DNA from: Amoebophrya sp. A120
Taxonomy: Eukaryota > Protista > Dinoflagellata
DNA: 49,209 nucleotides
Assembly (NCBI GenBank): GCA_905178155.1
Contig: CAJINV010000006.1
Span: 1 to 49,209, forward strand
Direction: 5' to 3'
Shown: positions 1,303 to 44,316 of the stretch, one piece after another
How positions within the stretch are numbered: the stretch's first letter is position 1
Layout of the letters: every line of letters starts with the position of its first letter
Translations under genes and position numbers: made by a program
The notes under the pieces: generated by a model
What the model was told of the DNA's origin: nothing
What the model saw: only the letters and a program-made list of their open reading frames with translations
Database searches by the model: none

Positions 1303-2180
1303 TTTTGCGTTTCTGTAGCGCGAAATGCGAGAAAATTTTTTGTCGTTGTTGCTGTGTTTCGAAAAAATTTGTTCTCTAATGAGCAAGAGGGTTGATGTAA
1401 GTAGGAAGCGAGTTACTTGATCGCTACAGAGAAGCTTTTGAGTTAGGCACTACAATAGCCATACTTTTTAGTTTTTAAGTGCGACCGCACCTTGGCAATT
1501 ATATAGATTTTCAAAAAATGGCGATAGTTCCGTTCTCTTTTCGAACAAAAAATTGACGGAAAAGTACCAACGTGCCTCTGAAAAAACACAGCGACAAGAA
1601 AACTGAAGCAAAGAAATAGTGGTGGAACGACTTGTAAGATTACGATTGATTTATGACGAACGATTTGGCTGAAGCATTTTGGAAGTCAAAAAAGAAACAA
1701 ACGTGCTCACGACTGTGCACATAATTTTCGCACTTCCCTGTGAAAATACGAAGACGCTGCGTCTGCACCTACGATAGAAGACTGAAACGACCTGTAAGCG
1801 CGATAAAAACTGACGAAGAGTTACTTGGTACTTACTTATGAGGTTGGGTACAGACGAAGGGAAGGGAAACGCGACGAAAAAAAGTTTCACGTTCTCCACC
1901 AATGTTGGAGCAACTAATTTCCACAATGGCAGCAAATTTTTTCGCGTGTTGATGTTTCCCGAAATGCTGTTGACATTTGTGTTGAAAATTCAAATTGTTT
2001 CTGAATTCCGCACGAGAGATTTCCTTTCTCTCTTTCGCACGAAATAGCAATATTTTTGTTCTTCTTCACAAGACTCGAGGTGGCAACACAGTCCTCGTTC
2101 CTTTGCGTTTGATTCGCTTCTTTCTCTTACATCAGCCCGCGCGAGAGGTTTCGGATGTTGTCTCAGTATTTAGCCCGATC

Positions 2181-5100
2181 CTAGTTCGCAGACGTCTGCG
2201 ACAGAACGAGATACCCCTTCCGCTGGTACTGCTGCCTGCTTAGGTTGCCGCCCCTGTCGGGGGTCGCAGGGAGCTTCACCTTTCCGGTCCAGAAGTCGCG
2301 CAGCCGTTTTAACCGGTCCTCGCCGTTGTGCTGTGCAAAGGCCAGGATGATAACGAAGAGGAAGTACTCGACGTTTCCCACCTCGCGGTACAGGGTTTCC
2401 GACTTCCGGCTGGCCTTTATCAAAGTACAGAAAACTACTCCAGCCTCACACCCGCTTGGAGCATCGAGGCGGTGTTCATGCGCATGCAGATGAAGCTTCT
2501 ATCGCGGTTCACACTCGCCAAAGAGAGCCTAGCATGCACATAGACTGCTTTGTTGAGATAGTTTCGCACCCTCGTGCCACATCTATCGCAATAAAGGCCG
2601 TGCTTCGTTCCTTGCTCCATAACAAAGGGTTTGGGAGTATGAGGCGGCACAGTTTTCCACTTTGATAAAAGGTTTGTCACGCTGAAGAACGCCGGTGTCG
2701 CATATGACGTCGAATGGGCGGGTGTCCTGTGCAAAAGCGTACCCATCGCTGCAAATCTGCAAACCGAGATTGTCTCCCATGTACCTTCACACGTCAGCCA
2801 TTTTCCACTCGTGTTTGGAATTTCGTCATTCTGCATGCATAGTTGCGCAGCTAATTAGGGACGCGACTGCGCGTTCTCGGCACGGGTGTGCTGCATATCC
2901 AAACTTGTCATGCGTGAGTCCTCTCAAAACTTGTTCTGTGAGTACATACCCAAACTTGTCATGCGGGTTTGTCCACCCGAAACAGATTTTCTACTTTGAC
3001 CATCGTGCAGGTACGTTTTTGCTCAGGATACACGGCCTTCTCGATGCTGCGATTTGTGCTGGACTGGAACTTCTTGACCGAGTTGACCTTTTTCAGGACC
3101 CTGTACACTTCGAGCATGTCATTTGCACGTTCTGGCGAGCCGAGGATGGTCGCTTTGGGAACACCGCACACGATCCGCACGGCGTCGACGAGCAGCTGTT
3201 CGAGACTTTTCCATCCGATTGGAATTTGTTCACCGGTCATGAGCATGAGCTTCGCGTCGCATCCGGTCAGGTGCGTTCCTGTTCGCACCGCGTAGACCTC
3301 GGCGTCGTCCGTCCTCGGCAGCCCGATGTTGTACTTCGTCGACCGCACCTGCCGGAGCTGTTTCAGGAGCATGTTGTGCAGCCTCTCCTTCTCGTCGATC
3401 GGCACGTCGATGACGACTGTAGTGACGGACTCATGCAGGGACGTCTGGGCTGTCAAGAGGAAAAGCGTCCCTACAATGCACACCCGAGTGAAGAAAAGCT
3501 GTACTCAGCATGCTATTGCAGTATCTTTGCGTAGTTGTAGTTCGAGAGCAAAATGCTGTTATTTCTAGTCGGTCTTCATCGCACACCGAATCTTCTGCAT
3601 GACAATCTACTGTCGCAGGACTTTTCGGACACATGTGGTCGCAGGATGCACACTGATTTCTTCTGTGTCGATTGTAGGGCATCTCGTTATTCATACTATT
3701 CTTGGTTTGTGCGCCAACATCCTGATTTTTTGCACGGAGGGGGGTTGAATAGTAAACGAAGCATGATCATGTTAAAAATGGCATTGAATTATTCGTCGCT
3801 GTAAATGAAGATTATAATTGCAAACACGACCCTACTTATACCAGATCCGCATTCGAATCTGGCGATGACCCAGGCACTATGGAAAGCAAAAAAGTACTTA
3901 CAGGTCAGGTGAATTGTGTCCAAAAGCTGTTTTCCTCTTCTTGCCACTTGCGCGGCTCATGCAAAGAGTCATGCAAGACATGCGCGGCTCATAGCAAGAG
4001 CCAAATTCAAGATCTGACACTGTACGCCTGCGTTTTGCTTATTGAGGAGCCCTTCAGTTGTACTTGCCGGCGGACGGAAAGAAGATGCTCCAACCTGTTA
4101 TACGATGCGTGGGAGGAGAAAATTATACGTTGTTTTGACCGTGGTTGGAGAAAAATGAGAACATCTGCGTCACGAAACCAATCACTCCATAACATCACAG
4201 AATTTCATTCTCCACAACATCGACAATATACCTGGTCCTCTTCGAGTTCAGCATCGGGGGAAAGCTGTGCTTTCGACTTGGTAGGGAAAATTTTTCTCCA
4301 ACCACGGATGCTGACATTTACTATTCTTTTCCCGGGAGCAGAATAAACTCTGTGCACACTACTATTTAACAAGTATGAATGGTCATGCAGCCTGACAAAA
4401 ATCGCGTCGTGCGTGGTCCGGTGTTTACTTAAACATGAGGCTGTGGTTGGATGCTTGATTTTCACTCTGATATCCGGTGGGGAGTCAGCGTCCAATCCGG
4501 TGCCGCTATGGAGTTAGCAGTGGTCAACAGCGTTTGATCTGACGCAAAGAAGTAGTGTACAGTTCCAGTGATGACCTCGAGGGAGGCACAAGACAGAAAT
4601 CAGAAAAAAAATAAGAGGTGGCTCGGGTGCTCTCTTTAGCGCGCTTTTGCGGTGGGAATCGCACGGGGGGGCGACAGAGGGTACTGCCATGTCAGGGACT
4701 ATGGGCAACTCACAACCAGCACCTCGCAGTCCCGACGTCACGCCGATCCCGTGGTGTGTCAAGAATGTCCACGATGCCAGTGGTGGTGTAGTTGTTTTTC
4801 CGTTTTGATGTACAGCATGTTCATCGCCTTTTCGAAATTGGCCGTGCGTCGGAGGAAGGCGTGTTCACCGGGTCGGAACATGGACGGCAGAAGCCCGCCT
4901 GCCACGCGGCTCCGAAGGCCAAGAACGACACAGGAATTATCGGATGCACATCTTGGTTTCGTCAATAAGTGCAGGAGCTCTCAGTTCGCTCAAGTAGATT
5001 TTCGAAATAAATTTAGTCTACGGCCGGGGGTGCAGCCCGGCACGCAGTACGGGCAACACGCCAAATTCTTGAGCCAATGTTGCTTGAGCCACGAAACGCC

Positions 5101-5293
5101 TGCAGCGGGGGTCTGACAAATTCTGGTAGGAACATGCAGGAGCTTTGTCATGCGGAGCAATGTGCGGTCTGTACGGCGCATCAACATGCAAGCTTCTTTG
5201 CATCAGAGTCGCAGCTGTTGCCTGCTGGGCAGCCGATTTTGTGTAGTATGGGACGCGGTTCTCGAGGTCAGTCTTCAGTTGCTTCAGCTGCAT
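2181..5293 (-). CDS. Probable multi-exon gene(s), not reconstructed
   Basis: Protein-like minus-strand fragments (2181-2423, 2959-3483, 4759-4965, 5018-5293) are separated by stretches rich in ttgtcatgc/gcatgaca (likely decayed elements). Confidence 0.35.
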
Positions 5294-5582
5294 GTTGGAC
5301 TTGGTACTCTCTGCTAGTTATCAGAGCAAAGCAGGAAGCCCGTCCTCGGGAAGATTTGACTCTGTGTTCCTAGTGCTACTCACAAATCACTTGCGCTGCA
5401 TGGAGTAGAAAAAGTTTATTAAAAGCTGGTCTTAGCAACTGTAGGCAGATAAGCCCTATGTTTTCAATAACTTTTTCGTTTCGCAATTAAGTCTTGCAGA
5501 ACAGAGACCCAGAGCATCGCATGACAAGTTCAAGTAAACGAAAAATGCTACGACCCTGACACGAGTGGAATTCGGGCGAAAT

Positions 5583-8500
5583 CTACTTCCTGCTCTTCCA
5601 TATGGGGCGCTTGAACGACGCCGGTCCAGTGGTCAGCCTCGGGGTCTGGTCTCCGCCCGTCACCTCGGCGGGGTCGTCTGCCGGCTTCTCCAGCGGTGGA
5701 AGTGTGAGGCCCGCGCTGTCGTCTTCCATTTTTGCGAGCTCCGCGGCGTTGAAGTAGGACACTTGGAGGCCGTTGCCCAGGGTGATGGTTTCCGCGTCGC
5801 ATCCTTCTGCGTCCAGGAGCCGCAGGATTTCCCTCCTCACCTTCAACGTGCAAACCGCGAGCAAGTCCGGGGGCATCGCTTGGAGCGATTCCACAGCGCA
5901 TCCTCAGCAAAAATGCCCCCACCCCAAAGCTGTCATGCAAATGCGCATTGACGCGAGCATTTGTAATGCGCATCTACATCTTCTACTCCTGTTTGCAGCA
6001 TTACAAATGCCAAAACACGATTAGAAATGCCTCCTATGGAGTCCATAAGGGGCATTTGCAATCGTGTTTTGGCATTTGTAATGCTGCAAAAAGGAGTGGA
6101 AGATGGCTTTCTCATGCGGTTACCCTTGCTAACCAGCACTACCCTGCAGGTGGAAACCTGTCATGCGCAACTGCCAAAACTTGGAGATTTGCTTTGCAGA
6201 TTCACCAACTTGGCTATAGGGTGGGGCCGTTTTTGCTCAAGATACTGTTGCACGCAGTGCCCCCCCGGACAATTCCACTGTCTCCGACGGAACCAGCACG
6301 GTGCTGTAAAATTGCCGGCTCTCGTAGAGATGACCCAGTGGCAGGACGTGACGGACGCGTTGCGCGTCTTGGACCGAAGCGGCCCCATCCATTCGGACCC
6401 CGAACGGGTTGGCCACTTTCTGCCCAATTGACTGGTAGTGGTCGTATTCTGAGAGCAGCTTTGTTACCCGGGCGTGTATGCATTGCAAATATCAATCTTG
6501 GTCTGGAACACTCTAATTTGTAATGCTAAGCGTGGATCCGATGCAAACAAATCTGTGTTGCATGATCACCAAAAGTTGTGAACTTTTAACCAAGTTGAGA
6601 GCAGACACTTTCTCATGCAGAACAGGCATGATACGGATCTCACAGCATCTGTCATGCTAGGTTCTGCATTCCAGAAGTCATGCGTCATGGAGAATCTGCA
6701 TGACAAGTCTTGCACTCTTCCAGACAAAGACATTTTTGCACTGGATATTGTGAAACGACGGGAGTTCGATTATCCAGGACTTCAGGGACTGCTGGATGGT
6801 ATATGGAATAATATTATCGAATGCAAATATGTCTGGGTCTGCAAGAATGCAACTTGTTTTGCTGCATTTGGATGGCAAAAAAATCTACATTGCATGAGCA
6901 GCAAAAGGAATCTTTTTGTTGCTACGCGGAAGGTGCATTTGTCATGCGGAATAGGCTTCAAGAAGCCCTCAAAAAATCTGTGGTGCTATCGCATGCATCA
7001 CACACATCATGCCTCGTGCAAAGCGTGCATGACAAGTCTTCCAATTTTCCAGACCCAGACATAATTGCATTTGATAAATACCAGGCACCGGCTGCGTCGT
7101 CGACTGGGGTGCTGTTTCGCTGACCGGCTTTGGAGAAGGGCTAGGGATTGTGTTGGTGACAAGTGGTGGTGGTCCCTTCGCTTCCATCTCGACGTAGTGG
7201 GACAACAGCTCGAGTTCGCTCTGGGCCCGCGTGGCGATGTCGATCAGTTTATCCTGAGTAGAAACGTCCCCACCCCATAGTCAAGTTCGTAAATCTGCAA
7301 CACAAATCTCGAAGTTTTGGGAGTTATGCATGACAAGGCTCCATCTGTAGTACTTTGTAGCAAGGGCAGCAGCATCACAAAGACGCCTGCTTATTCTGTT
7401 TACAGCATTACAAATCCGCCCAGAACACGACTACAACTTCCTCTCTCGCGGATGCGTATTACAGATTTTTGTGTAGATGCAAATCTGCATGACAACAACT
7501 ATGGGGTGGAGACTTTTTTACACAGGATACATTTTGTTGTGGAAGCGCGAACCGTAGTTGAAGTACTCCGTCGTGACTATCAAAAGGAAAAATCCCCCCA
7601 CCCCATACTCAAAGGGAGATTTGTATAGTATGATTTGTGATCACAAATCGCGTTGTCATGCTACAAGGTAAGAGATGCAGATTTCAGTGCTGGCTGGCAT
7701 GGGAAAGCTTTGCGTCTTCAGCATGACAGGAAGCAACTGGAAACAGGAAACAGCATGACAAATTTCCTGCAAACGAAGGAACAGCTGCGTCTTTTGGCCT
7801 TCTAGCAATACAAGTCGATTTGTGGTCACAAATCAGCATCACAAATTTCCTTTTTGATATGGGGAGGGGGGATTTTTCCTTTTGATAGTGACCTGGTTCG
7901 TGCTGAACATCGCGCTATCCAAAATGGTGTTCAACAGGTCGGTATGGATTGCAAAAGTGTCTGGTTCTGGAAGAATGCAACGTGTGATGCTATTTTTGGA
8001 ACCTAAAAAAATCTGTATTGCATGACCAGCAAGTACAGGCGTCCAGTTTTTGCGCTGCGGAGAGGGCATTTGTCATGCGGGATAGGCGTCATGATACCCG
8101 CAAAAAATCTGTGATGCTGGGGCATAGTACATCGCAGACATCACGGGCCGTGCAAAATGTGCATGACGAGCCTTGCAATCTTCCAGACCCAGACATATTT
8201 GCATTTGATAGGCGGTGAGTTCAATGTTCGGGTTATCGTGAGACAAGACGTCCCCGCGCCCCATAGATAAGATGGGAAATCTGCTAGAGAAATCGACAGG
8301 CTGTGGCTGTTGCGAATACAAATTTCAGGGTCGGAGTGTAGTTGTATTTCGCAAGTAGTATTCTAGCAGCATCACAGAGCGCAAATACCATGCTGATTCG
8401 AGCAACACAAATTATCTCAAAACACCACCAGAAAATGCTTCTCATGGGAACGAAAGATTTTACGCATGCAGAATTGCATTACAACTCTGGGTTGGGGACG

Positions 8501-10135
8501 TTTTGACACGGGATACGGGTTGCCGCAGTTGATCAAGCAGTCCCGGATGTAGTGTGTCGTGTTCTTATGAAAGTGCGCAACCCCTCCTCCCCCTCCTTTG
8601 TCATGCAAAGTACCAACTCCACGCCTTCCCTCTTGGCACTGTTTGCATGACAAATTTTGGCCGCCAAACTAGCACTAAAACCCTGCGCAAATTTGTCATG
8701 CAAAACTTGCACCCCAGCTGACGCTTGTGTTGCTTCTATTCATGCCCTATAAATGAGGGCGAGGGGGGGTTGTGCACTCTGATAGTTGTTCTCCACGGGT
8801 TCCATCTCTCGGACTATGCATTGCAAATATCGCTCGACGTCTGGAGAAGTGCAAGATTTGTCATGCTTCTATAACTGCAGAGTTTGTCGTGATGCGAGTC
8901 CCCGAGAAAGCTCTTGTCCTGACCATACAGAAAAACACATCGTCATGCAGAATGCGCAGCAGGTGCACTGGCCGTGCAAATTTTTCTCATGCTTGGCTGG
9001 TGATTATTACTGTCATTCTTTACAAGATAGCATTACAAAGTTCGTGGTCGAGAACAATATTTGCATTGCATACCCACCGGGACGCCTTCGGGTGCGAGGA
9101 TGGCTGCGACTTCCGCTAGATTTTCCAGTATCCCGTATCCTGAGTAAAAACGAGCCCACCACCCGATAATCAAGATGGGGATATATTTTTGGCAACACAA
9201 AAAATCCTGAAGTTCCGAGAGTCACGCATCACAAGTTCCACCTCTCTGTGCTGTAGTGCAGGATATCGACAACTACAGCCGCATCACAAAAACACCAGCT
9301 CATCCTGTTTACAGCATTACAAATGTCAAAACTCGGTTTGAAAAAATGCCTCGACTGGGATTTCGCATTACAAATGTTCCGTGTTAATTTTCAAATCCGC
9401 ATGATGAGAACGCTGGAGTGGGGACGTTTTGAGTCAGCATAGCCCGACCGAGACGTTGTACCCTTCTTCCCCACCGAGGAGTTGCGCCATGGTTGCCGGC
9501 GCCGCACTCCGGATCTCCTGCGACGGTTGGAGGGGCGCCCACAGATGCTGCAGCTTCTGCCCGGATTGCACGCATTCTGTTTCCAGCACCGCCAGTGACA
9601 CTTGGCCGCCCGCCGAAAAAAACATGTTGAGAGCGCCGCGGACTTGCACGTCGTATACGACGGCGTTGACTTTGACTCCCTCGGTTCTCGCGGGCTGTTC
9701 TGCACTATTGGGGGAGTGGTGTCTTCTCGCAGCGGCTTCTGCTTGTTTTTGGCGCAGAAGTTTCATCTTGTGCTCACTGTCATCTCTGTTGCCGTCGTAC
9801 GTGAGGTGGACGGGTTTCACTATCGTGTAGAAAAAAGTGTTTCACTGTATGCGATTCATTGTTGAAGTTTTGCATCAAGAGTTCGCTACGCATGACATGC
9901 AGTCCTCCTGAGGGAAAAGATCTTTCAAAACCTGATTTCCTCTTGCATGTGTTGTACAACTAGCAAGACAAATCCGTCTGTGTTGCATTCTTTGCGTCAC
10001 AAGCTCAATACAGGGAAACACTTTTTTCTTCCGATATTCAACGCAGGCGAAGGCGCCACGTTGGACTGGTTGTCAAACACGGTAACTTCACTTCTGCCGT
10101 CATCCGTGAGTGGGGACCTATGGACGCGGAGTGAG
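5583..10135 (-). CDS. Gene G1, unknown protein, at least 12 exons separated by 11 introners; 5' end unresolved
   Basis: Manual splice is open throughout: SLRVHRSPLTDDG..KPVHLTYDG..NVSVG|ILENLAEVAAILAPEGVPV|EMEPVE|NTTHYIRDCLINCGNP|NIELT|LLNTILDSAMFSTNQV|TTEYFNYGSRFHNK|IDIATRAQSELELL..|IPYTIQQSLKSWIIELPSF|HARVTKLLSEY..|VESLQAMPP..WKSRK*. Confidence 0.85.
5899..6244. mobile_element. Introner, B-like family
   Basis: catcctcagcaaaaatgcccccacccc ... ggggtggggccgtttttgctcaagata; degenerate TSD cagcg/ctgtt; removal keeps frame. Confidence 0.75.
6477..6747. mobile_element. Introner, family A
   Basis: tatgcattgcaaatat ... atttttgcactggata; TSD gcgtg/ttgtg. Confidence 0.85.
6815..7076. mobile_element. 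Introner, family A
   Basis: tatcgaatgcaaatatgtctgggtctg ... cagacccagacataattgcatttgata; TSD aatat/aatac. Confidence 0.9.
7250..7529. mobile_element. Introner, family B
   Basis: tatcctgagtagaaacgtccccacccc ... ggggtggagacttttttacacaggata; TSD cagtt/cattt. Confidence 0.9.
7578..7887. mobile_element. Introner, family C
   Basis: tatcaaaaggaaaaatcccc ... ggggatttttccttttgata; perfect TSD gtgac. Confidence 0.92.
7943..8210. mobile_element. Introner, family A
   Basis: Family A TIRs; TSD gtcgg/ggcgg. Confidence 0.9.
8234..8515. mobile_element. Introner, family B
   Basis: Family B TIRs; perfect TSD cgggt. Confidence 0.9.
8566..8784. mobile_element. Introner, family D
   Basis: tatgaaagtgcgcaacccc ... 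ggggttgtgcactctgata; TSD gttct/gttgt. Confidence 0.85.
8815..9072. mobile_element. Introner, diverged family A
   Basis: tatgcattgcaaatat ... atatttgcattgcata; TSD cggac/cccac. Confidence 0.8.
9136..9441. mobile_element. Introner, family B
   Basis: tatcctgagtaaaaacg ... ggggacgttttgagtcagcata; TSD tcccg/gcccg. Confidence 0.85.
9821..10036. mobile_element. Introner, family E
   Basis: tatcgtgtagaaaaaagtgtttcactg ... cagggaaacacttttttcttccgata; TSD ttcac/ttcaa. Confidence 0.88.
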
Positions 10136-11329
10136 TACCATGCAAGAGGACAAAAGAGCTGCAATTTTAGTGCGATTCTGGACCACGATGGAGACGATGC
10201 AAGACACAGAAGCCTGCCATGCGAAACTTTTGTCACACGCAGCATATTTATTTTACCTCATATTTTGATGTACTAAGCTGCGCACAACAAGTTTTTGTGA
10301 TGCAACTTCCTTTGGATGAAAAGAGCCTGCCTGGCTAGTGAGTCGCACCATTGCAGTTTTTTTGTCGGATAAATACACTGGCCGGTTTGTGGTGGGTGAG
10401 ATGCCCGTCTGCAGGAAGAACGCATCGCACAGAAAACCGCTAGCAAAGGGTGTTTGCAGATGTGCAGACAAATTTCGCTCTGGGCATGACAGGTTTGTTC
10501 TTGTGCTGGTTGTAGTATGCACGGCTGCTCTGGGGCGATGGCGATTACTATTTTCATGACAGAAGAACTTTCACAACACGTCCACCGCTGCGCTAGCATT
10601 TTTCTGTTCCATATTGCTTTTGGTGCTGGCCGGGCGCGTGCACCTGGAAAAAAGACATTATTTCACAGGTCTAAAAGAACGTCAAGCGATTTATTGGTGA
10701 TTTGAGGTTATTTACTCGTCCTGCAAGTGAGCTGTTGAAAACACGCGCAGTTGTGCTACAGAAAATTATCACAGAACAACAGGACTATGGCGAATAAATC
10801 CAGCACAATTATGGAAAGTCCTCATGATGCAATCGTGCAAGAATGAATCAAAACTGACAATAAGACGGTCCTGAGAGAAGATTTTGGACGAAAAAAAAAG
10901 TTCAAGGAGACGCAACAAAACCGAAGATGGAAGGTCTGGAGAGCAGCTGCAGCTGTCTCATGAAAAAAATGTTCACAGCAGACTTCTTTGAATATTGTCA
11001 CGGGTGTCTCAACGGATAGTGTCAACATCGGCAATGGATCAATGTCTTTTTTGGGCGTCTCGAGAACAGCAACATCACAATCAAGAACAGCCTCCTGCTT
11101 TTCAACGCAGACTACTGAAGAGTGTTCGCACGAACATACGAACAGGGAATAGTTTCTTTAGCGCACACAATTGTGAAACAAGTAGGTTCTTTCTCGCGTA
11201 CGAGGGTTTGCTTCGTCGGGTCTTTTTGCAAGACAGCTCTGAATATCTGAAGTTTCTTGGTTTTGTCTACCTCAGCAATTTTCAATTAGCCCCTGCAGCG
11301 AAGTCATCGGAACTACATCACGTCGCTGG

Positions 11330-14362: not shown

Positions 14363-14623
14363 TTATTGCTTGTCCATCTCAGCCCGCCGCGCAGCCTCCA
14401 TTTCTTGCCACTGCATCTCCCGTTCTTCATCCCAGGATTGGCCTTGGTCCACCGAAGGGGAACCCACTTCCACGGACGGCGACCTGGCTACGACAGGAGG
14501 AAAGCGCCGTCGGGGCTGTAGGTTCCAGCGCCGTGCCAGGTACTCGTCCTCCGACGGCAAGCCACGCAGTTTGTCCAGCAGGTCGTCCAACCTGTCCCGC
14601 AAACACTGGAACAGCAGGTACAT
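14363..14623 (-). CDS. 86-aa small ORF, copy 1
   Basis: MYLLFQCLRDRLDDLLDKLRG..AEMDKQ*; conserved from start to stop with 19711-19971. Confidence 0.6.
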   Translation of the reverse strand: MYLLFQCLRDRLDDLLDKLRGLPSEDEYLARRWNLQPRRRFPPVVARSPSVEVGSPSVDQGQSWDEEREMQWQEMEAARRAEMDKQ

Positions 14624-15151
14624 GGGCGTGGTGCTATAGACTGGCAGTTGCTTGTTGGTTGTTGTACTTCGATAGATAGAAACAAAAATATCTGTGTGTC
14701 GGCCCCGACGGCACACTCCGTTTAGCTAGAACAATACACTGTGGAAGGACAAGCGAAAATGTTCATTCAGTGGCACACGAAGATCGCTCATTCACTCGGC
14801 TCCAGTGCGACAGTCATGCCGACATCAGAAATTCAGCGTACAAGGAACAACGAAGCCTACCACTGGCGATGCGACCTGATCTTTGGTTCATTCCCTGTAC
14901 ACGTCGAGCCCTCAAACGAATTTCTCTCCTGCTGTCCTCTCTCACAGTACGAAATCAAAATGCAGACGTTGCTTTTTGCGTCGAACACGCGCTGCGCTTT
15001 CACGCTCAACAACGAAGATTCATTTCCAATAAACGGCGCGACTTGGTTTTGTAGCCCACGACGCTTCCAGAGATACCGATCCGCAACTTTTTGGTCTAGT
15101 AGAGGTCTTTTTGCAAGACAAATATCACCCGAGAGGTCGAGGGGCTTGTTC

Positions 15152-19710: not shown

Positions 19711-19971
19711 CTATTGCCTGTCCATCTCAGCTCGTCGCGCAGCCTCCATTTCTTGCCACTGCATCTCCCGTTCTTCATCCCAGGATTGACCTTGGTCCAC
19801 CGAAGGGGAATCTACTTCCACGGACGGCGACCTGGCTACGACACGAGGAAAGCGCCGTCGGGGCTGTAGGTTCCAGCGCCGTGCCAGGTACTCGTCCTCA
19901 GACGGCAAGCCACGTAGTTTGTCTAGCAGGTCGTCCAGCTTGTCCCGCAAACACTGGAACAGCAGGTACAT
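19711..19971 (-). CDS. 86-aa small ORF, copy 2
   Basis: Differs from 14363-14623 at 4 amino acids, plus several synonymous changes. Confidence 0.6.
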   Translation of the reverse strand: MYLLFQCLRDKLDDLLDKLRGLPSEDEYLARRWNLQPRRRFPRVVARSPSVEVDSPSVDQGQSWDEEREMQWQEMEAARRAEMDRQ

Positions 19972-20824
19972 CTTCGTGTTGTTAACTACCGGCACGCGGC
20001 CTTTGTGACGCGAACTGTTTGTCAGAGAAAAAAAAACGACTTTGAGTTTGTTTTTGGTCGTCCACGAACAGCGCTTGTTCTATGCGGATCTACACTACGT
20101 CAGCGATTTGCAACAGCGAATTATAGATGGGTCAACGACCCTTTCACTCCGAGCGGGGTTTCTGGCTTGTTTCACTCCAACGAAAAAGCGACTCTTTGAT
20201 GCGCAGAAAGCGATAGAACAGGAACTGTTTCAAAGAAGTGGCGCTGCCTGCTTTTCAACAAGCGGGAGGCGTTCACTTTCACGGAAAGGAAAAAATTTCA
20301 TCACAAGCCAAAAATACTGGGAAGAGAAACAACAATCCGCGACAAAGATGTTGTTGGAACAATGAAACGCGCCGTCTCTTCAGCAGAAGTCTCTAGACAG
20401 AGCAGGGGAAACAAACGCTGCAGTAGACCTCAAATTCCTCAAGCGTCGCCGCAGAGAAGTCCGCTGGACGCACCGGCTTGTTGCAATAGCCACTGTAGCT
20501 GGACGGATGCGCGCAGGAGCCATCCCGACGAGATTCCCAACCTTGGGGGCACGCGCTGAAGTTGGGTTGGCAGGGTTGTATGGAGTGGAGAAATGTATTG
20601 CGTCTTTTTCTAGGACAATTTTGATTGTGTTTTTCTTCTGCCGGATCTGCTAGGTTTTACACGTTATCTCTTTACACACCTTCACATCACAGCTGCAAGA
20701 AGCGCATGACAGATTGCGTTCCGCGGAGATGCAATATTTTCTCTTTGCCTAGATTGGTCGCACTGCGCGTTGGCTCTTCCCGAGGCGACGTGTGCCTCTG
20801 CGGCTTTGGCAACGCTCGTCACGG

Positions 20825-22455: not shown

Positions 22456-22559
22456 GTCACATGGACGCTACGAGGTTTGCATGACATGCAGGGCGGACGC
22501 TAGCAACTTCCTGCCATTGTTGACGACGCGACAAAAAAAAGCAAAAAGACGGAACCGCG

Positions 22560-24045
22560 CAAACCGGCGCGGCCGGTTTTGCGGCTCCGCAAGTACATAG
22601 ACCCCTCACTGGAACAGGCACGGACATCCGGAGCCCCGAAAGATTCAACGCGCGCCGGGACTGACGAAGGCAGGCGCTGCCATCATTGACCACGCGGGCC
22701 AAAACAGAAAGCAGACGGCGACAAGCGCCGGCCGTTTGGTTCTTGTGCGCAAATCGGCGTGGCCGGTTTTGCGGCTCCACAAATACATACACCCCTCACC
22801 CGAAAAAGCATGGACATCCGGCGCCCCGAAAGATTCAACGCGCGCCGGGACTGACGAAGGCAGGCGCTGCCATCATTGACCACGCGGGCCAAAACAGAAA
22901 ACAGACGGCGACAAGCGCCGGCCGTTTGGTTCTTGTGCGCAAATCGGCGTGGCCGGTTTTGCGGCTCCACAAATACATACACCCCTCACCCGAAAAAGCA
23001 TGGACATCCGGCGCCCCGAAAGATTCAACGCGCGCCGGGACTGACGAAGGCAGGCGCTGCCATCATTGACCACGCGGGCCAAAACAGAAAACAGACGGCG
23101 ACAAGCGCCGGCCGTTTGGTTCTTGTGCGCAAATCGGCGTGGCCGGTTTTGCGGCTCCACAAATACATACACCCCTCACCCGAAAAAGCATGGACATCCG
23201 GCGCCCCGAAAGATTCAACGCGCGCCGGGACTGACGAAGGCAGGCGCTGCCATCATTGACCACGCGGGCCAAAACAGAAAACAGACGGCGACAAGCGCCG
23301 GCCGTTTGGTTCTTGTGCGCAAATCGGCGTGGCCGGTTTTGCGGCTCCACAAATACATACACCCCTCACCCGAAAAAGCATGGACATCCGGCGCCCCGAA
23401 AGATTCAACGCGCGCCGGGACTGACGAAGGCAGGCGCTGCCATCATTGACCACGCGGGCCAAAACAGAAAACAGACGGCGACAAGCGCCGGCCGTTTGGT
23501 TCTTGTGCGCAAATCGGCGTGGCCGGTTTTGCGGCTCCACAAATACATACACCCCTCACCCGAAAAAGCATGGACATCCGGCGCCCCGAAAGATTCAACG
23601 CGCGCCGGGACTGACGAAGGCAGGCGCTGCCATCATTGACCACGCGGGCCAAAACAGAAAACAGACGGCGACAAGCGCCGGCCGTTTGGTTCTTGTGCGC
23701 AAATCGGCGTGGCCGGTTTTGCGGCTCCACAAATACATACACCCCTCACCCGAAAAAGCATGGACATCCGGCGCCCCGAAAGATTCAACGCGCGCCGGGA
23801 CTGACGAAGGCAGGCGCTGCCATCATTGACCACACGGGCCAAAACAGAAAGCAGATGGCGACAAGCGCCGGCCGTTTGGTTCTTGTGCGCAAATCGGCGC
23901 GGCCGGGTTTGCGGCTCCGCAAGTACATAGACCCCTCACCCGAAAAAGCACGGACATCCGGCGCCCCGGAAGATTGAACGCGCGCAGGGACTGACGAAGG
24001 CAGGCGCTGCCATCATTGACCACGCGGGCCAAAAAAGAAAAGATA
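22560..24045 (+). repeat. 190-bp GC-rich satellite, ~7.8 copies
   Basis: cattgaccac recurs every 190 bp (22684-24014). Central copies are identical and edge copies diverged. Confidence 0.97.
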
Positions 24046-33170: not shown

Positions 33171-33180
33171 GAGACGGGGG

Positions 33181-34090
33181 GGCGCCGCACCGGACCGGTG
33201 CGGCGCTAATGAAGAAGCACTGCTGCAGGCCAATTTTCAATCGGGAGAAGGCAGCAATGCTTCCCTCAAGGGCGCCGCACCGGACCGGTGCGGCGCTAAT
33301 GAAGAAGCACTGCTGCAGGCCAATTTTCAACCGGGAGAAGGCTTGCAGCAATGCTTCCCTCAAGGGCGCCGCACCGGACCGGTGCGGCGCTAATGAAGAA
33401 GCACTGCTGCAGGCCAATTTTCAATCGGGAGAAGGCAGCAATGCTTCCCTCAAGGGCGCCGCACCGGACCGGTGCGGCGCTAATGAAGAAGCACTGCTGC
33501 AGGCCAATTTTCAACCGGGAGAAGGCTTGCAGCAATGCTTCCCTCAAGGGCGCCGCACCGGACCGGTGCGGCGCTAATGAAGAAGCACTGCTGCAAGCCA
33601 ATTTCCAATCGGGAGAAGGCTTGCAGCAATGCTTCCCTCAAGGGCGCCGCACCGGACCGGTGCGGCGCTAATGAAGAGGCACTGCTGCAGGCCAATTTCC
33701 AATCGGGAGAAGGCTTGCAGCAATGCTTCCCTCAAGGGCGCCGCACCGGACCGGTGCGGCGCTAATGAAGAAGCACTGCTGCAGGCCAATTTCCAATCGG
33801 GAGAAGGCTTGCAGCAATGCTTCCCTCAAGGGCGCCGCACCGGACCGGTGCGGCGCTAATGAAGAAGCACTGCTGCAGGCCGATTTCCAATCGGGAGAAG
33901 GCTTGCAGCAATGCTTTCCTCAAGGGCGCCGCACCGGACCGGTGCGGCGCTAATGAAGAAGCACTGCTGCAGGCCAATTTCCAAGCGGGAGAAGGCTTGC
34001 AGCAATGCTTCCCTCAAGGGCGCCGCACCGGCTGCAAGCCAATTTTCAAGCGGGGGAAGGCTTGCAACAATGCTTCCCTCAAGCGGGAAA
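33181..34090 (+). repeat. 90/94-bp satellite (~9.5 copies), each with the 25-bp palindrome gcgccgcaccgg-a-ccggtgcggcgc
   Basis: Periods run 90, 94, 90, 94, 94...; the last unit is deleted from the palindrome axis. Confidence 0.97.
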
Positions 34091-35186: not shown

Positions 35187-37287
35187 CTATTGTGTTGGGA
35201 ACCGACGGTGAGAACGGACTCTCCTCGCGAATTCCGACGAGTTTTTCACTTCGTACTGCAGTTGCGGATACCGGATGTCCCAGGTTTTCCTCGTGGCCGC
35301 CTGCTGCAGTGACGGTTGCTCTGCTGGTGCCGCACTTTTTGCCGGCACGCTCGCGGCCGGCTCAACACTTGGGCCAGCGGGTTCCTCAGCGACGGTGTGC
35401 GGGTCTGCTTCCTGCTTTCCCGAGGACGCGCTGCTCCGGCCGCTGGTATTTATTTCCGCGCACACGACTTGCGCCGTTGGGTCGGAGGTGTCGTTATGCA
35501 CTGCAAAAATGTCTGGGTCTGGAAGCAGGATGGAACTTGTAATGCTAATTCTGGATCGTGCAAAAATCTGTGTTGCATGAATGCCAAAAGTTGTCCACTT
35601 TTGACCAAGTTGAGAGGAAGTTTCTCATGCAGGATAGGAATGATACGGATCTCACAGAATGATCTGTCATGCTAGGTCCTGCATTCCAGACGCTATAGTT
35701 CATGGAAAATCTGCATGACAAGGCGCACAACCTTCCAGACCCAGACATTTTTGCATTTGATAGTCGTCTCCAGTCGGACCACCGCCTTTTGTCGTGGTAG
35801 GGTCGGTGGTGGCGGGAGGATTCTCGTTATGCGTGGTGGTTGGGCCGCTGCCTGTAGTTCCACACAGAGGGAGCACGGGGACGTCGACCAGTTGTGGCAC
35901 CACCATGTGTGTACTGACAGCCCTTATCAAAATGAAAAATCCCCCTTCCCCAGGTCGAAACGGCACGCCTCAGAAAATTTGTAATGCTGATTTGTGACCA
36001 CAAATCGCGCCTGTCTTGTAAGAAAGCAACGCCACAGACAACCGCCCCATTATGCAGGCAGTTTGTAGTAATGCTGGTGGGCCTACAGCATAGACGCTCC
36101 TCATGCTACAGTGCCTAGGCCAAAACCTCTGTACCCTGGCATGATATGGCCATGCAATCCTCCACTGCAAGACAAAGGCGATTTGTGGCCACAAATCAGC
36201 ATTACAAATTTCCGTTTCGATATGGGGAGGGGGGATTTTTGCTCGCGATAGCCCTGCAGCAAGGGCACTTGAGCGGATTTTTCACGTGCTGGACGCGCGG
36301 GAGGATTTGCCCAGGAGAACGGAATATGCACTGCAAAAATGTCTGGGTCTGGAAACGTGTGATGCAAGAAGTCCGTCAATGACAAATGCACTGTAATGCG
36401 CGGCCAAGTATGACAAGTTTGTTTGAGCTTCTGTTCTGCGTACTTACTCCGCATCAGAAACTGCGTTTTTGTATGACAGGTGAGAGAGGCAGAGGCTGTT
36501 TTCTGGCCACGCAATACAGATTTGAGGGCCATGCCAGACCAGCATGGCAAGTCTCGCGAGCTCTCAGACCCAGACATATTTGCATTCGATACGGATCCGC
36601 ACTTCCCGCGTTGTGACCACGGTGGATTCATAGTCCTTTATGCAGGCCGTGTGGAAGACGTGGCCGCAGGTATCCTATGCAAAAACGTCCCCAGCACCCC
36701 AGAGTTGTCATGCAAATCTGCATGCTGAAAATGTTTCCCATGCGGAGCCCCATGAGAAGCATTTTTCGCTAGTCGAGTTTTTAGAATTTGTGATGCTCAA
36801 ACCAGCATAAGGCGCTAGATTTGTAACGCTGTTGCACTAGCTAAACACGACTACACTTCTGCCAGCCCAAACTTGTCATGCGTAACAGCCAAAGCTTGTC
36901 GATTTGTCTTGCAGATTTCCCAACTTGACTATGCCTATGGGATGGGGACGTTTTTACATATGATAGCAGGGGATCAGCTGGGACACCTGGTCGTCCGGAT
37001 CCATGATGTCCAAACAGATTTTATGGCGTTCTCAACTGTTACATCCTCAACTGTTACACGAATTTGTTATGCAAGAATGGCAAACAAAGTGAAAGGACGG
37101 AGCTTGCGCGTCTTGCATGACAGATTTGGTACAGATTTAGACGCTGTTATTACAGCCATTCGAGAACTTGTCATGCGAAGCAGCTGGATCGTCTGGTGGC
37201 TCATGGTCATTTTGCATGACAAGTCAGGTAGCAGTTGAGAATGTAACGTTTGAGAACGCCATAGATTTGGCATTCTGGCTGCAGCAT
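35187..37287 (-). CDS. RING-H2 (C3H2C3) finger protein, putative E3 ubiquitin ligase; 6 exons
   Basis: Spliced MLQPECQI|CLDIMDPDDQVSQLIPC|GHVFHTACIKDY..RIR|SPGQ..NPLKCPCCRA|VSTHMVVPQ..GDD|TSDPTAQ..FPTQ*. All eight zinc ligands are recovered. Confidence 0.85.
35495..35762. mobile_element. Introner, family A
   Basis: Family A TIRs; perfect TSD gtcgt. Confidence 0.93.
35925..36250. mobile_element. Introner, family C
   Basis: Family C TIRs; perfect TSD gccct. Confidence 0.92.
36325..36591. mobile_element. Introner, family A
   Basis: Family A TIRs; TSD cggaa/cggat. Confidence 0.9.
36671..36965. mobile_element. Introner, family B
   Basis: Family B TIRs; perfect TSD gcagg. Confidence 0.92.
37022..37263. 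mobile_element. Introner, family G
   Basis: tatggcgttctcaactgttacatcctcaactg ... cagttgagaatgtaacgtttgagaacgccata; perfect TSD gattt. Confidence 0.92.
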
Positions 37288-38303: not shown

Positions 38304-39447
38304 CTACGCTCTTCTCGTTAATAAAATACGTTTTTGCCGGGCACCTTGCGATCGTGGCGCTATTTCTCTTTCCATACTCCTCACATGCTATCATACGAAA
38401 AAAGTGTTTCCCTGTAAGGATTTTGCAAGTTGTGCATCACATGAAACAGAAAATCTGCCATGCGCGCTTCCCAATTTAAACCGCTCCTAAAAGTCCAATG
38501 TCTTGCGGGTGTAGCAAGACAGATACTTCTGTGTTCCATTCTATGCATCACAAGTTCACAGTGAAACAGTTTTTTCTTGTGATACATGCGACTCAATCTC
38601 CGTCCACTCTGGAGCCCGGTAGCGGTGCCCCGTGCCTTGCAGCAACACAGACGTGCAGCGGCCGGAAGACAGGAAGCCCGAGGCCGCCAGGTCACTTGCG
38701 TATCAAATGTAAAAGTGTCTGGGTCTGGAAGAATGCGAAATTTGTTATGCTGTTTTTGCATGACACAGAATGTCTGTCATGGAAGCCCTAGCATCACAGA
38801 TCTTTAGAGGCCTTCCTGATACCTGTGCTGCATGACAAATGCCCTCCACGCGTAGCACAAACCGGACTCCTTTTGCTGGTCATGCAATACAGAATTTTTT
38901 AGAGTCCAAAGTTAGCATCACAAGTTCCAACCTTCCACACCCAGACATTTTTGGAATCCATATTGCGGCCTGGCAGTCGATGATTTTGTCCTCGTCGCCG
39001 TGGAGAATCAGCACTTTTGGTCGACTATCAAGTGCAGAAATGTCTGGGTCTGGAAGGATGTAGCTTGTGATGCGCATTTCAGAACACACAAAAATCTCTG
39101 ATGCATAGGCAGCAAAAGCTGCTCACTTTCTCTCACCAAAATGGGTGACTTGTCATGCGGATTCGGCATTGCGGAAGCTTCTCGAAACCTGTGATGCTAG
39201 AGCTTCCATGCCAGACCTTCTGTGTCATGCAGAAACAGCATCACTATTCCAGACCCAGACATTTTTACATTTGATATCGACGCGGTGAAAAAACAGACGA
39301 ATTATCGGTGCTGGCAACACGACCCGGAAAAGATCCCGCTCGTTTCTCCTTGCCACCAGTTCTTTCTGCAATCTCGACTTTCACACTGCTTGTTGCAACA
39401 TCCGTGCTACAGTTTTTATCTGCGGCGGATGAAGCCGGCGCGTCGAG
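38304..39447 (-). CDS. C-terminal part of an alpha/beta-hydrolase; 5' part rearranged or lost in the gap (possible pseudogene)
   Basis: Spliced SPRR|PKVLILHGDEDKIIDCQAA|SDLAASGFLSSGRCTSVLLQGTGHRYRAPEWTEIESH|VRSMERE..RRA*. HGDED (catalytic Asp) and GTGH (catalytic His) motifs are present; no GxSxG was found. Confidence 0.72.
38389..38584. mobile_element. Introner, family E (opposite orientation to 9821)
   Basis: Family E TIRs; perfect TSD catgc. Confidence 0.92.
38701..38962. mobile_element. Introner, family A
   Basis: Family A TIRs; perfect TSD ttgcg. Confidence 0.92.
39026..39276. mobile_element. Introner, family A (duplicated at 41396-41646 and 43638-43888)
   Basis: Family A TIRs; perfect TSD tcgac. 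Confidence 0.92.
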
Positions 39448-39523
39448 TATCCTGTGTAAAAACGTGTCCATACCAGAGTCGAGATGGGAAATCTGCTAGA
39501 CAAATCAACCAGCTGTGGTTGCT

Positions 39524-40165
39524 NNNNNNNNNNNNNNNNNNNNNNNNNNNNNNNNNNNNNNNNNNNNNNNNNNNNNNNNNNNNNNNNNNNNNNNNNNNNN
39601 NNNNNNNNNNNNNNNNNNNNNNNNNNNNNNNNNNNNNNNNNNNNNNNNNNNNNNNNNNNNNNNNNNNNNNNNNNNNNNNNNNNNNNNNNNNNNNNNNNNN
39701 NNNNNNNNNNNNNNNNNNNNNNNNNNNNNNNNNNNNNNNNNNNNNNNNNNNNNNNNNNNNNNNNNNNNNNNNNNNNNNNNNNNNNNNNNNNNNNNNNNNN
39801 NNNNNNNNNNNNNNNNNNNNNNNNNNNNNNNNNNNNNNNNNNNNNNNNNNNNNNNNNNNNNNNNNNNNNNNNNNNNNNNNNNNNNNNNNNNNNNNNNNNN
39901 NNNNNNNNNNNNNNNNNNNNNNNNNNNNNNNNNNNNNNNNNNNNNNNNNNNNNNNNNNNNNNNNNNNNNNNNNNNNNNNNNNNNNNNNNNNNNNNNNNNN
40001 NNNNNNNNNNNNNNNNNNNNNNNNNNNNNNNNNNNNNNNNNNNNNNNNNNNNNNNNNNNNNNNNNNNNNNNNNNNNNNNNNNNNNNNNNNNNNNNNNNNN
40101 NNNNNNNNNNNNNNNNNNNNNNNNNNNNNNNNNNNNNNNNNNNNNNNNNNNNNNNNNNNNNNNNN
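39524..40165. other. Assembly gap
   Basis: Run of N. Confidence 1.
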
Positions 40166-43100
40166 NGCGGGCGCCGTCAACGCGCAGCAGCCCGGGCCCA
40201 GCGTCCCGATTTAATCGGCGAAACAGGTTGGGCCAAGGCGCTCTCCCGGCCGATTCTATCGTCGAAACAGGTCGCGCGGAGGTGTTTCGACGTCGAAACA
40301 CCTTCGCCCGAGCTGTTTCGCCGCTAGAATCGGGAAACACAGCCTGGTTGGCTCTCGTCTGCGCAGCCTTTTCTTTCTTGGCCGGCCCCCGTTCCAGAGG
40401 TTTTTCCCAGGCGGGCGATACCTCTGCGTTGGAGGTGGGGCCGCACCTTTCTTGGCCTTGCGAGCGGGACACGCACTGCCGCTGTGCGACAACGTGTGTG
40501 CCTGCCCAATTCATATACGTGTTATTTTTGAGTCATGGTTGGCGCAGAGCCCGTGGGGCTCACGGCCACCGAGACCACCACGCGTTTCTTGGAAGGCAGG
40601 AGTGAATGGAAGGCCAGCAACCTCGGGCGCTCGGCGAGTCGGTATTGGCAAGGCGCCCGGCCGCGCTATGGAGCGCGGCTGCATGCTCTGTATCTGTTTG
40701 CGTTTGGTATGCGGACATAGATATGCGTGCGCTTGTCTTGCTATGTGAATTGCTCACTGGTGGCCGTGCTCTATATGTTCTCTTCCGCCCTCGTCCTTCC
40801 CGGGGGCGTAGAGCCTTATTTCCAAATGGGACGCCACAGTGAAAATCCCACCTGGTAAGAGCGGTAGGAAAGTAGTGAGGCCGACGAGATCGGGCGTGAA
40901 TCGCGCCGGCGCCTGCACGTGCACAGAGCCCTTTTTGCGGCGTTTGAGGTGCCCCGCCGGGCTCTGCAGCGCACTCGTTTCCGCTGGCTATCGTGAATAT
41001 TTTCCGATAGCTATCGTAGTCGCGATGGTACCGGAATAAATGAGTGTGCGTCCATAGCTGTTATGCAACACAGATTTTTACTTGCTTCAGAATCTGCATC
41101 ACAGGTCTGCATCCTTCCAGTCGGAGTCCAGGGGGGGGTATTTGCAATGCATAGAATTCCGATTCGTCAAACGGGTACTTGGGTCCTGATACCTGTGCTG
41201 CATGACAAATGCCCTCCACGCGTAGCACAAACCGGACTCCTTTTGCTGGTCATGCAATACAGAATTTTTTAGAGTCCAAAGTTAGCATCACAAGTTCCAA
41301 CCTTCCACACCCAGACATTTTTGGAATCCATATTGCGGCCTGGCAGTCGATGATTTTGTCCTCGTCGCCGTGGAGAATCAGCACTTTTGGTCGACTATCA
41401 AGTGCAGAAATGTCTGGGTCTGGAAGGATGTAGCTTGTGATGCGCATTTCAGAACACACAAAAATCTCTGATGCATAGGCAGCAAAAGCTGCTCACTTTC
41501 TCTCACCAAAATGGGTGACTTGTCATGCGGATTCGGCATTGCGGAAGCTTCTCGAAACCTGTGATGCTAGAACTTCCATGCCAGACCTTCTGTGTCATGC
41601 AGAAACAGCATCACTATTCCAGACCCAGACATTTTTACATTTGATATCGACGCGGTGAAAAAACAGACGAATTATCGGTGCTGGCAACACGACCCGGAAA
41701 AGATCCCGCTCGTTTCTCCTTGCCACCAGTTCTTTCTGCAATCTCGACTTTCACACTGCTTGTTGCAACATCCGTGCTACAGTTTTTATCTGCGGCGGAT
41801 GAAGCCGGCGCGTCGAGTATCCTGTGTAAAAACGTGTCCATACCAGAGTCGAGATGGGAAATCTGCTAGACAAATCAACCAGCTGTGGTTGCTTCACATG
41901 ACAAATTTGTCCTTGTAGTGCAATCCTGTTTCAGTAGTTGAGCAGCATATACAGATCTAGCATATAATCAGGGTGAGACTAGAAAATGCTTCTCCTGGGG
42001 CTCCGCATGAGAAACTTTTTTGGCATGCAGATTTGCATGAGAACTCTGGCGTGGGGACATTTTTAATCAGGATCATATCGAGGAACGCTTCCAGGTGTCG
42101 GCACTTCAGATTGATGCCGCCGCGTTTGATGGCGTTGTTCAGTCGCTGCTTGAATTCCGCTTCGTCAAACGGGTACTTGGATCCGTGGTAGAGCGGCAGC
42201 ATCTGGTTTTGCAGGGTTTGGAGTTGTTGGATTCTGCTTTTCGGCAGGCGCCCGGCTCCTTTGTTTCGCCTCTTTCTTCGACGCTTGCCACTGCCAGCAC
42301 GCGCTGGCCGGGCGGCTTTTCTCGTCAAGTTCCGCCGGCAATAGGTTATGGACAGCTGTGGCCCTGTGCCGCGGAGTTTTCCCCCATTTCCTGTTCTGTT
42401 TCTGTCCCGCGGGCGCCGTCAACGCGCAGCAGCCCGGGCCCAGCGTCCCGATTTAATCGGCGAAACAGGTTGGGCCAAGGCGCTCTCCCGGCCGATTCTA
42501 TCGTCGAAACAGGTCGCGCGGAGGTGTTTCGACGTCGAAACACCTTCGCCCGAGCTGTTTCGCCGCTAGAATCGGGAACCACAGCCTGGTTGGCTCTCGT
42601 CTGCGCAGCCTTTTCTTTCTTGGCCGGCCCCCGTTCCAGAGGTTTTTCCCAGGCGGGCGATACCTCTGCGTTGGAGGTGGGGCCGCACCTTTCTTGGCCT
42701 TGCGAGCGGGACACGCACTGCCGCTGTGCGACAACGTGTGTGCCTGCCCAATTCATATACGTGTTATTTTTGAGTCATGGTTGGCGCAGAGCCCGTGGGG
42801 CTCACGGCCACCGAGACCACCACGCGTTTCTTGGAAGGCAGGAGTGAATGGAAGGCCAGCAACCTCGGGCGCTCGGCGAGTCGGTATTGGCAAGGCGCCC
42901 GGCCGCGCTATGGAGCGCGGCTGCATGCTCTGTATCTGTTTGCGTTTGGTATGCGGACATAGATATGCGTGCGCTTGTCTTGCTATGTGAATTGCTCACT
43001 GGTGGCCGTGCTCTATATGTTCTCTTCCGCCCTCGTCCTTCCCGGGGGCGTAGAGCCTTATTTCCAAATGGGACGCCACAGTGAAAATCCCACCTGGTAA

Positions 43101-44059
43101 GAGCGGTAGGAAAGTAGTGAGGCCGACGAGATCGGGCGTGAATCGCGCCGGCGCCTGCACGTGCACAGAGCCCTTTTTGCGGCGTTTGAGGTGCCCCGCC
43201 GGGCTCTGCAGCGCACTCGTTTCCGCTGGCTATCGTGAATATTTTCCGATAGCTATCGTAGTCGCGATGGTACCGGAATAAATGAGTGTGCGTCCATAGC
43301 TGTTATGCAACACAGATTTTTACTTGCTTCAGAATCTGCATCACAGGTCTGCATCCTTCCAGTCGGAGTCCAGGGGGGGGTATTTGCAATGCATAGAATT
43401 CCGATTCGTCAAACGGGTACTTGGGTCCTGATACCTGTGCTGCATGACAAATGCCCTCCACGCGTAGCACAAACCGGACTCCTTTTGCTGGTCATGCAAT
43501 ACAGAATTTTTTAGAGTCCAAAGTTAGCATCACAAGTTCCAACCTTCCACACCCAGACATTTTTGGAATCCATATTGCGGCCTGGCAGTCGATGATTTTG
43601 TCCTCGTCGCCGTGGAGAATCAGCACTTTTGGTCGACTATCAAGTGCAGAAATGTCTGGGTCTGGAAGGATGTAGCTTGTGATGCGCATTTCAGAACACA
43701 CAAAAATCTCTGATGCATAGGCAGCAAAAGCTGCTCACTTTCTCTCACCAAAATGGGTGACTTGTCATGCGGATTCGGCATTGCGGAAGCTTCTCGAAAC
43801 CTGTGATGCTAGAGCTTCCATGCCAGACCTTCTGTGTCATGCAGAAACAGCATCACTATTCCAGACCCAGACATTTTTACATTTGATATCGACGCGGTGA
43901 AAAAACAGACGAATTATCGGTGCTGGCAACACGACCCGGAAAAGATCCCGCTCGTTTCTCCTTGCCACCAGTTCTTTCTGCAATCTCGACTTTCACACTG
44001 CTTGTTGCAACATCCGTGCTACAGTTTTTATCTGCGGCGGATGAAGCCGGCGCGTCGAG

Positions 44060-44316
44060 TATCCTGTGTAAAAACGTGTCCATACCAGAGTCGAGATGGG
44101 AAATCTGCTAGACAAATCAACCAGCTGTGGTTGCTTCACATGACAAATTTGTCCTTGTAGTGCAATCCTGTTTCAGTAGTTGAGCAGCATATACAGATCT
44201 AGCATATAATCAGGGTGAGACTAGAAAATGCTTCTCCTGGGGCTCCGCATGAGAAACTTTTTTGGCATGCAGATTTGCATGAGAACTCTGGCGTGGGGAC
44301 ATTTTTAATCAGGATA
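44060..44316. mobile_element. Introner, family B (duplicated at 41818-42077 and 39448-gap)
   Basis: Family B TIRs; perfect TSD tcgag. Confidence 0.9.

Follow-up and report, generated by a model that had tools for sequence, protein, structure and literature searches.

The tens of thousands of non-canonical introns of Amoebophrya pose the question of how they move and how they are spliced; the genome paper describes neither a transposase in A120 nor a splice signature (PMC7789003). The window analysed here, the whole of a 49,209-nt stretch of DNA, raises it in a specific form, since a short motif, GCA(T/A)NACA or its reverse complement, recurs inside introns whose ends differ from one family to the next. 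The first-pass annotation took the spacings of the motif to be near multiples of 10.5 bp, proposed same-face binding of a protein such as a transposase, and added that the motif could be the signal for intron removal. We ask here which of these roles the motif may have.

The motif-bearing elements are MITE-like introns of 100–350 bp, with TAT-N7-A-rich inverted ends, bordered by a 5-bp direct repeat. They are short and non-coding, with inverted ends, a target duplication and a high copy number, the characteristics by which MITEs are recognized; the summed DNA depth reaches ~180,000 on elements against ~45 on unique DNA, a sum that is not a copy number. The TAT...ATA ends (18/18 consensus ends start with TAT), the 5-bp duplication and the motif are common to all families; the remaining inverted ends and the interiors differ, and across families the inverted ends are dissimilar past ~15 bp. 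In 54 curated window copies the duplication is perfect in 22 and retains four of five positions in 11, and all five positions agree in 303 of 474 profile-detected copies. Contigs from a DNA run retain the elements, whereas they are skipped in contigs of four presumed RNA runs made from one sample. A TA duplication of the mariner or ciliate-like kind was ruled out, as the duplication is 5 bp and lies outside TAT...ATA. Ciliate-type DNA elimination was likewise ruled out, as DNA contigs traverse the elements and the duplication consists of 5 bp of free sequence.

Judged by end signature and family lengths, the elements match the published introners of Amoebophrya sp. A120, which points to a parasitic marine alga as the likely organism whose genes they fill. 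As in the accessible text of PMC7789003, the ends consist of TAT, seven variable bases and a run of A (at least three in the window families), with short direct repeats at the borders and non-canonical splice sites; A120 introners are kept in DNA and removed from RNA, as are the elements here in the presumed RNA contigs. The published lengths of 106, 149, 209, 214–227, 252–260, 278, 305 and 319–322 bp fit the families found here, in a comparison covering 40 of the 58 A120 family rows of the PMC12130899 supplement. The accessible portions of both papers give hundreds to about 1,950 separate families, their superfamily unknown (PMC7789003; PMC12130899). The elements are already known; the motif pair and its distance from the end, described below, are apparently new. 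The shared internal motif, the pair spacing and the −1/+4 cut rule were not found in the available parts of the two introner papers, the available part of the review PMC11282704 adds nothing on element interiors, and no report of the motif or its spacing was found in openly readable literature text, figures and some supplements aside.

A scan of the collection with the family-A end gave a larger sample of at least 147 loci (544 kb), in which family A is over-sampled; among the matches listed, all loci (L001–L147) come from one other assembly, and the best matches of the listed loci to window elements are 67–95% identical. Window and listed loci together hold at least 424 unique elements. After a stricter filter 407 copies remain: eight families of 6–187 copies each, one pair, and 27 singletons. 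Nine alignments were made of the eight families, since family A was split into two groups. Two long copies in the loci, L024 632–1465 (834 bp) and L050 3862–4492 (631 bp), have family-A ends and a perfect duplication around unrelated cargo; none of their 12 ORFs has a Pfam match, and the longer of the two is of similar size to published families of 808–811 bp. Another family-A element (L070 6017–6988) is split by ~700 bp of sequence that has an A-rich tail, with a ~19-bp direct repeat containing the motif; this looks like a retroposon insertion. The window elements at 8566–8784 and 37022–37263 have similar interiors and different inverted ends, a combination that suggests end swapping.

The features in and near the studied region are listed in Table 1. 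The intron count of the host gene is made up of 14 introns from listed RNA joints, one (family B) from the end of a piece and a loose end, and two that share a joint with 12 intervening letters; 15 of the 22 RNA joints are listed. The one exon of this gene that was tested has no Pfam match. Also present in the window are a family-B copy that contains a long fold-back duplication (5899–6244; z −16.7, mononucleotide shuffle), near-identical repeats of ~2.24 kb around an N gap (39026–44316, one copy masked), which are possibly an assembly artefact, tandem arrays at 22500–24000 and 33180–34030 with units of ~190 bp and 61–66 bp, and a small minus-strand ORF of ~120 codons that has no introns and occurs twice (14363–14725 and 19711–20079).

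Table 1. Elements, motif copies and host gene in and near the studied region (window coordinates).
Feature	Position	Strand	Remarks
Part of host gene	2000..8784	-	17 introns in span; removal leaves one open frame of ~615 codons
Old intron	2414..2668	-	RNA-skipped; no strong motif; strong end-to-end hairpin, z −5.1
Old family-B intron	2719..3031 (relic 2725–3030)	-	RNA-skipped; motif at 2906 and 2957, 51 bp apart
Family-A element	6815..7076	.	TAT...ATA ends; duplication 4/5 intact; intron of minus-strand gene; RNA joint 6809>7077
Opposite-strand motif copies in family-A element 6815..7076	6855, 6940
Motif pair 6995/7027	6995..7034	+	32 bp apart, toward right end of family-A element
Family-B element	7250..7529	.	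Duplication 4/5; six motif copies on one strand, in three pairs; RNA evidence: piece stops at 7244, loose end at 7530 has that exon's letters
Family-B motif copies	7297, 7328, 7372, 7405, 7456 (one mismatch), 7487	+	Span 7297..7494
Family-C element	7578..7887	.	Perfect 5-bp duplication; RNA joint 7572>7888
Opposite-strand motif copy in family-C element 7578..7887	7654
Family-C motif copies	7721, 7753, 7805, 7836	+	Spacings 32, 52, 31; span 7721..7843
Decayed family-D relic	10165..10371	.	Motif copies at 10199 and 10296

The recurrence of the motif within elements is real: the window holds 223 matches to GCAWNACA, compared with 19.7 ± 4.1 expected from 100 dinucleotide shuffles. Eleven of the twelve starts given by the first-pass annotation are exact, the twelfth (7456) being a one-mismatch copy, and the spacings calculated from them are correct. 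The longer form of the motif approximates WGCATSACARRT, in which six positions are near-invariant (0.90–0.99) among 1,794 copies picked with the same matrix. With the window gap and a duplicate masked, 187 matches fall in 16.1 kb of element DNA and 25 in 30.2 kb of non-element DNA. Throughout the 407 copies from the window and the second assembly, WGCATSACARRT occupies fixed slots in 8/8 families with at least six copies. Known as these introners are, the motif is a real and apparently undescribed cis-feature of them.

A host DNA-binding or chromatin protein that occupies the motif pairs, bending, packaging or shielding the DNA, with the transposase reading the termini only, would leave the same DNA-level signs as a mobility site. 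One site across families with different inverted ends would be expected of such a protein too, and the A120 genome paper, in its accessible text, reports no transposase (PMC7789003). The motif density speaks against it, with 14.1 copies per kb in elements, 0.30 in long ORFs (chance level) and 1.27 elsewhere, undetected relics included; with the motif so scarce outside elements, native host sites are hardly in evidence. Together with the constrained distance from motif to cut end, discussed below, this makes a host protein unlikely as the main reader of the motif.

The motif core is better conserved than the element interior. Identity of the core to the consensus is 0.88–0.98, compared with 0.69–0.81 for the interior (seven alignments), a contrast that is somewhat inflated because the core was defined on the consensus, and core identity equals or exceeds that of the inverted ends in each of the seven. 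Across family history the core has diverged at ~0.3 times the interior rate. This rate is difficult to reconcile with the motif being a functionless relic, left by common ancestry or internal duplication, or marking the ends of nested TG...CA elements. Family B does resemble three modules of ~81 bp, and the reverse motif starts TGTNR-like, as do the Ginger and Gypsy ends described in the accessible part of PMC2836005. Against this, spacers inside pairs are dissimilar across families (identity 0.33, compared with 0.28 when shuffled) and mostly so within them (0.03–0.71), and the family-B copies all point in one direction, so that they cannot be paired ends. The relic explanation is largely refuted, and we give it very little weight.

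After insertion the motif erodes at about the background rate. With erosion of the duplication as age marker in the 474 profile-detected copies, older copies have lost 2.5% of core identity (CI 1.0–4.0) and 2.2% of interior identity (CI 0.1–4.3); the difference, core minus interior, has a CI of −2.4 to +2.0%, which with its weak power fits either background decay or partial protection. The comparison of the motif with its neighbours in old copies, suggested by the first-pass annotation, thus gave post-insertion decay close to background. On trees, which are partly circular as a test because interior columns define them, the core/interior ratio of changes is 0.28–0.52 on terminal and 0.04–0.44 on internal branches, and the core has 478 terminal and 128 internal changes, the interior 4126 and 2130. 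No copies sharing one insertion site were found in the window and the listed loci.

The spacing of the copies has one universal component. Adjacent same-strand copies have a modal spacing of 31–33 bp in 16 of 29 cases, with at least one such pair in each of the nine alignments; the other 13 family-modal spacings are 18, 20, 39, 39, 48, 49, 51, 54, 84, 93, 95, 97 and 131 bp. In the family-B element at 7250 the pairs are 31, 33 and 31 bp and the linkers 44 and 51 bp; these linkers are private to that copy, and the family-B modes of 49 and 48 bp correspond to 4.6–4.7 turns. The family-A spacing of 39 bp, 3.7 turns, was absent from the spacings on which the phasing claim was built.

General 10.5-bp phasing of all copies lacks significant support when pairs are kept rigid. 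A window-only periodogram (0.54 at 10.5 bp) overstated the phasing and was superseded by a block null that keeps pairs rigid; a slot-level null in which each slot was moved freely (p 0.0005 at 10.5 bp) overstated it as well. The autocorrelation check proposed with the original claim, carried out with the block null on the window and the 544 kb of the second assembly, gave p 0.25–0.38 at 10.5 bp, 0.05–0.25 at 10.2–10.35 bp and 0.016–0.045 at 16–16.25 bp for same-strand copies. For all orientations with a fitted offset the values are 0.0025 at 10.2–10.35 bp, 0.097 at 10.5 bp and ~0.01 at ~16 bp. A 16-bp grid fits as well as 10.5-bp phasing. In unclustered elements the pair is present, with no phasing beyond it (mean cos −0.14, n = 48), and among copies the pair spacing is barely more rigid than other spacings (0.47 vs 0.58 per 100 nt). 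What stands of the near-10.5-bp spacing is the universal 31–33 bp pair.

The distance from the element end is also constrained. The first outward site tends to lie 36.5–37.5, 44.5–48.5 or 59.5 bp (~37, 47 or 59) from the end. Over 13 ends R is 0.68 for a period of 10.5 bp and 0.15 for one of 16.1 bp, and at the family level R reaches 0.8–0.9 (p < 0.001); as there are two to three modes only, the period is not fixed, and 9.5–12 bp fit equally. Only two recurrent deletions exceed 4 bp, and both are of 11 bp and close to the element end. In a seven-copy family-C subfamily that includes the element at 7578, the deletion lies between the inverted end and the first motif and has moved the intact motif by one turn. 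In ten family-A copies it has clipped the first motif; that this subfamily has still spread counts against the motif as a mobility site. A family-E variant with different inverted ends has its site 10 bp farther in. The 31–33 bp direct pair stands firm, as does the distance from the end, and general phasing is unproven. Among insertions relative to the consensus, multiples of three are favoured (distinct events of 3, 6, 9 and 12 nt: 152, 51, 19 and 7; of 4, 5, 7 and 8 nt: 44, 30, 12 and 7; window and L001–L147). Element insertions outnumber deletions and few are exact tandem duplications, which is odd for intronic DNA.

Removal of the elements from RNA likely follows their ends. In 7/7 unambiguous joints (window 2414–8784) the cuts fall 1 nt ahead of TAT and 4 nt beyond the terminal ATA position; among these are two in which TAT has decayed (TAA, TAC) and two in which ATA is ACA. 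Seven ambiguous joints, judged by eye, agree by position. A fixed −1/+4 cut implies that intron position +2 is always T; it removes the element together with a stretch equal to one duplication, and restores the frame. Intron length modulo 3 is flat (133/113/125). Two GT...AG introns, 3721–3840 and 4093–4229, share the cut register and may have started as old introners that later became canonical. Strong hairpins are likewise no constant feature of old introns: z is strong in some (−5.1, −7.8) and weak in two others (−1.6, −0.4), and the GT-AG intron at 3721–3840 has no hairpin signal (z +1.1, mononucleotide shuffle).

The motif might still act in RNA, as a signal for splicing or an enhancer of it that a protein binds or that pairs within an intron hairpin. 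Strong copies number 39 in eight young introns and five in nine old ones; four of the nine retain near-perfect copies, and five copies are more than the 0.2–0.5 expected by chance. In addition, the core still changes more slowly than the interior on terminal branches, and U1 snRNA was not detected in Amoebophrya genomes (PMC7789003, accessible text), which calls for another recognition route. However, five of the nine old introns are skipped in RNA with no strong motif, post-insertion decay is near background, and the cut position tracks the ends in all seven unambiguous joints. Family B, whose one-directional copies make motif–motif pairing impossible, occurs 6 times sense and 7 times antisense and is skipped both ways round in one gene. 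Over all elements the motif is sense to the host strand 310 times and antisense 370 times. Orientation biases exist for families A2, C and D in the loci (18:6, 3:9 and 5:11); those of 18:6 and 3:9 would suit an RNA signal, but the biases differ in direction among families, and motif directions are inconsistent. Persistence in decayed introns, which had suggested the removal role, was confirmed at 2906, 2957 and 10296, while the copy at 10484 lies outside any recognised family. The proposal that the motif is the removal signal is disfavoured, given the old introns lacking it, the 6:7 orientation of family B and a core that decays at about background, and an RNA-level role is improbable. The occurrence in both orientations, the absence from five of nine old introns and the near-background decay point instead to a likely DNA-level mobility site.

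On balance, the motif is probably a repeated DNA binding site, sub-terminal and internal, of one transposition machinery that would serve all the intron-forming MITE families. This reading draws on the conserved core, the dissimilar spacers, the one-turn steps in end distance and the lack of a consistent transcript-strand preference; as expected of subterminal binding repeats, conserved short repeats sit at set distances from the ends. The earlier suggestion of a transposase-like protein remains the best reading on the strength of the conserved core, the three-turn pair and its presence in eight families, without support from 10.5-bp phasing of all copies. Protein subunits would bind each motif pair on one helix face, which would bring the catalytic part to the short TAT-N7-A-rich end. 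Families could then be free to diverge or swap their inverted ends while keeping motif and spacing. Selection for mobility would keep the motif in copies that give rise to others, and after insertion the motif would be largely free to decay. RNA removal would be a separate step, likely set by the ends, at −1 before TAT and +4 after the terminal ATA position.

Comparable arrangements are found in other transposons. In hAT and CACTA elements subterminal repeats are bound by transposase, and hAT5, with its 5-bp duplication, is a possible alternative superfamily. The Mu, Tn7 and IS21-type transposons have multi-site ends with uneven spacing and asymmetric transposase sites at each end, and Mu and Tn7 make 5-bp duplications; these are bacterial, with TG...CA ends, and serve as a mechanistic analogy only, with no homology claimed. 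Transposase binding to the subterminal repeats of MITEs, cooperative in the case of Emigrant, is described for Emigrant/Lemi1 in the openly available part of PMC1636448. As in that system, non-autonomous elements carry short repeated sites internal to their inverted ends; in contrast to it, one motif is shared here by families with dissimilar ends, it occurs throughout the element, and the elements are introns at the same time.

The leading guess for the mobiliser is an integrase-like DDE enzyme. Ginger elements, according to the accessible part of PMC2836005, have TGTNR termini and mostly 4-bp duplications, and TDD-4 and TDD-5 make 5-bp ones, as found here. Membership in Ginger was rejected on the termini, TAT here as opposed to TGTNR (same source). 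Integrase-side homology does occur in the published A120 family 38, listed in the consulted portion of PMC12130899 with '5-bp TSD, TA/TA Termini' and Copia/Gypsy homology, and this family is a lead toward the mobiliser. No transposase was found in 110 ORFs (105 from the loci and five from the window; 122 long ORF candidates) within ~0.6 Mb, nor in the 12 ORFs of the two long copies, and no integrase ORF was present among the long ORFs and these copies. PMC7789003, in its available text, reports no transposase for A120 and speaks against transposases as general mobilisers.

A broader and more tentative proposal, which we hold to be possible though less likely than the binding-site role itself, is that all A120 introners radiated within a single transposon system that has a two-layer code, combining a pair grammar read by one hitherto undescribed integrase-like mobiliser with end-only splicing. 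In the first layer, three-turn pairs and one-turn end steps would be read and most of the inverted-end sequence ignored. In the second, an N-TAT...ATA-NNNN end rule would allow seamless splicing in either orientation without GT-AG.

The occurrence of the motif in all tested families suggests that the apparent diversity of these introns is that of one system. The motif provides a DNA bait for the mobiliser and a filter for an autonomous parent, and its analysis separates a likely mobility signal, in the element interior, from a likely removal signal, in the ends with their −1/+4 cut.
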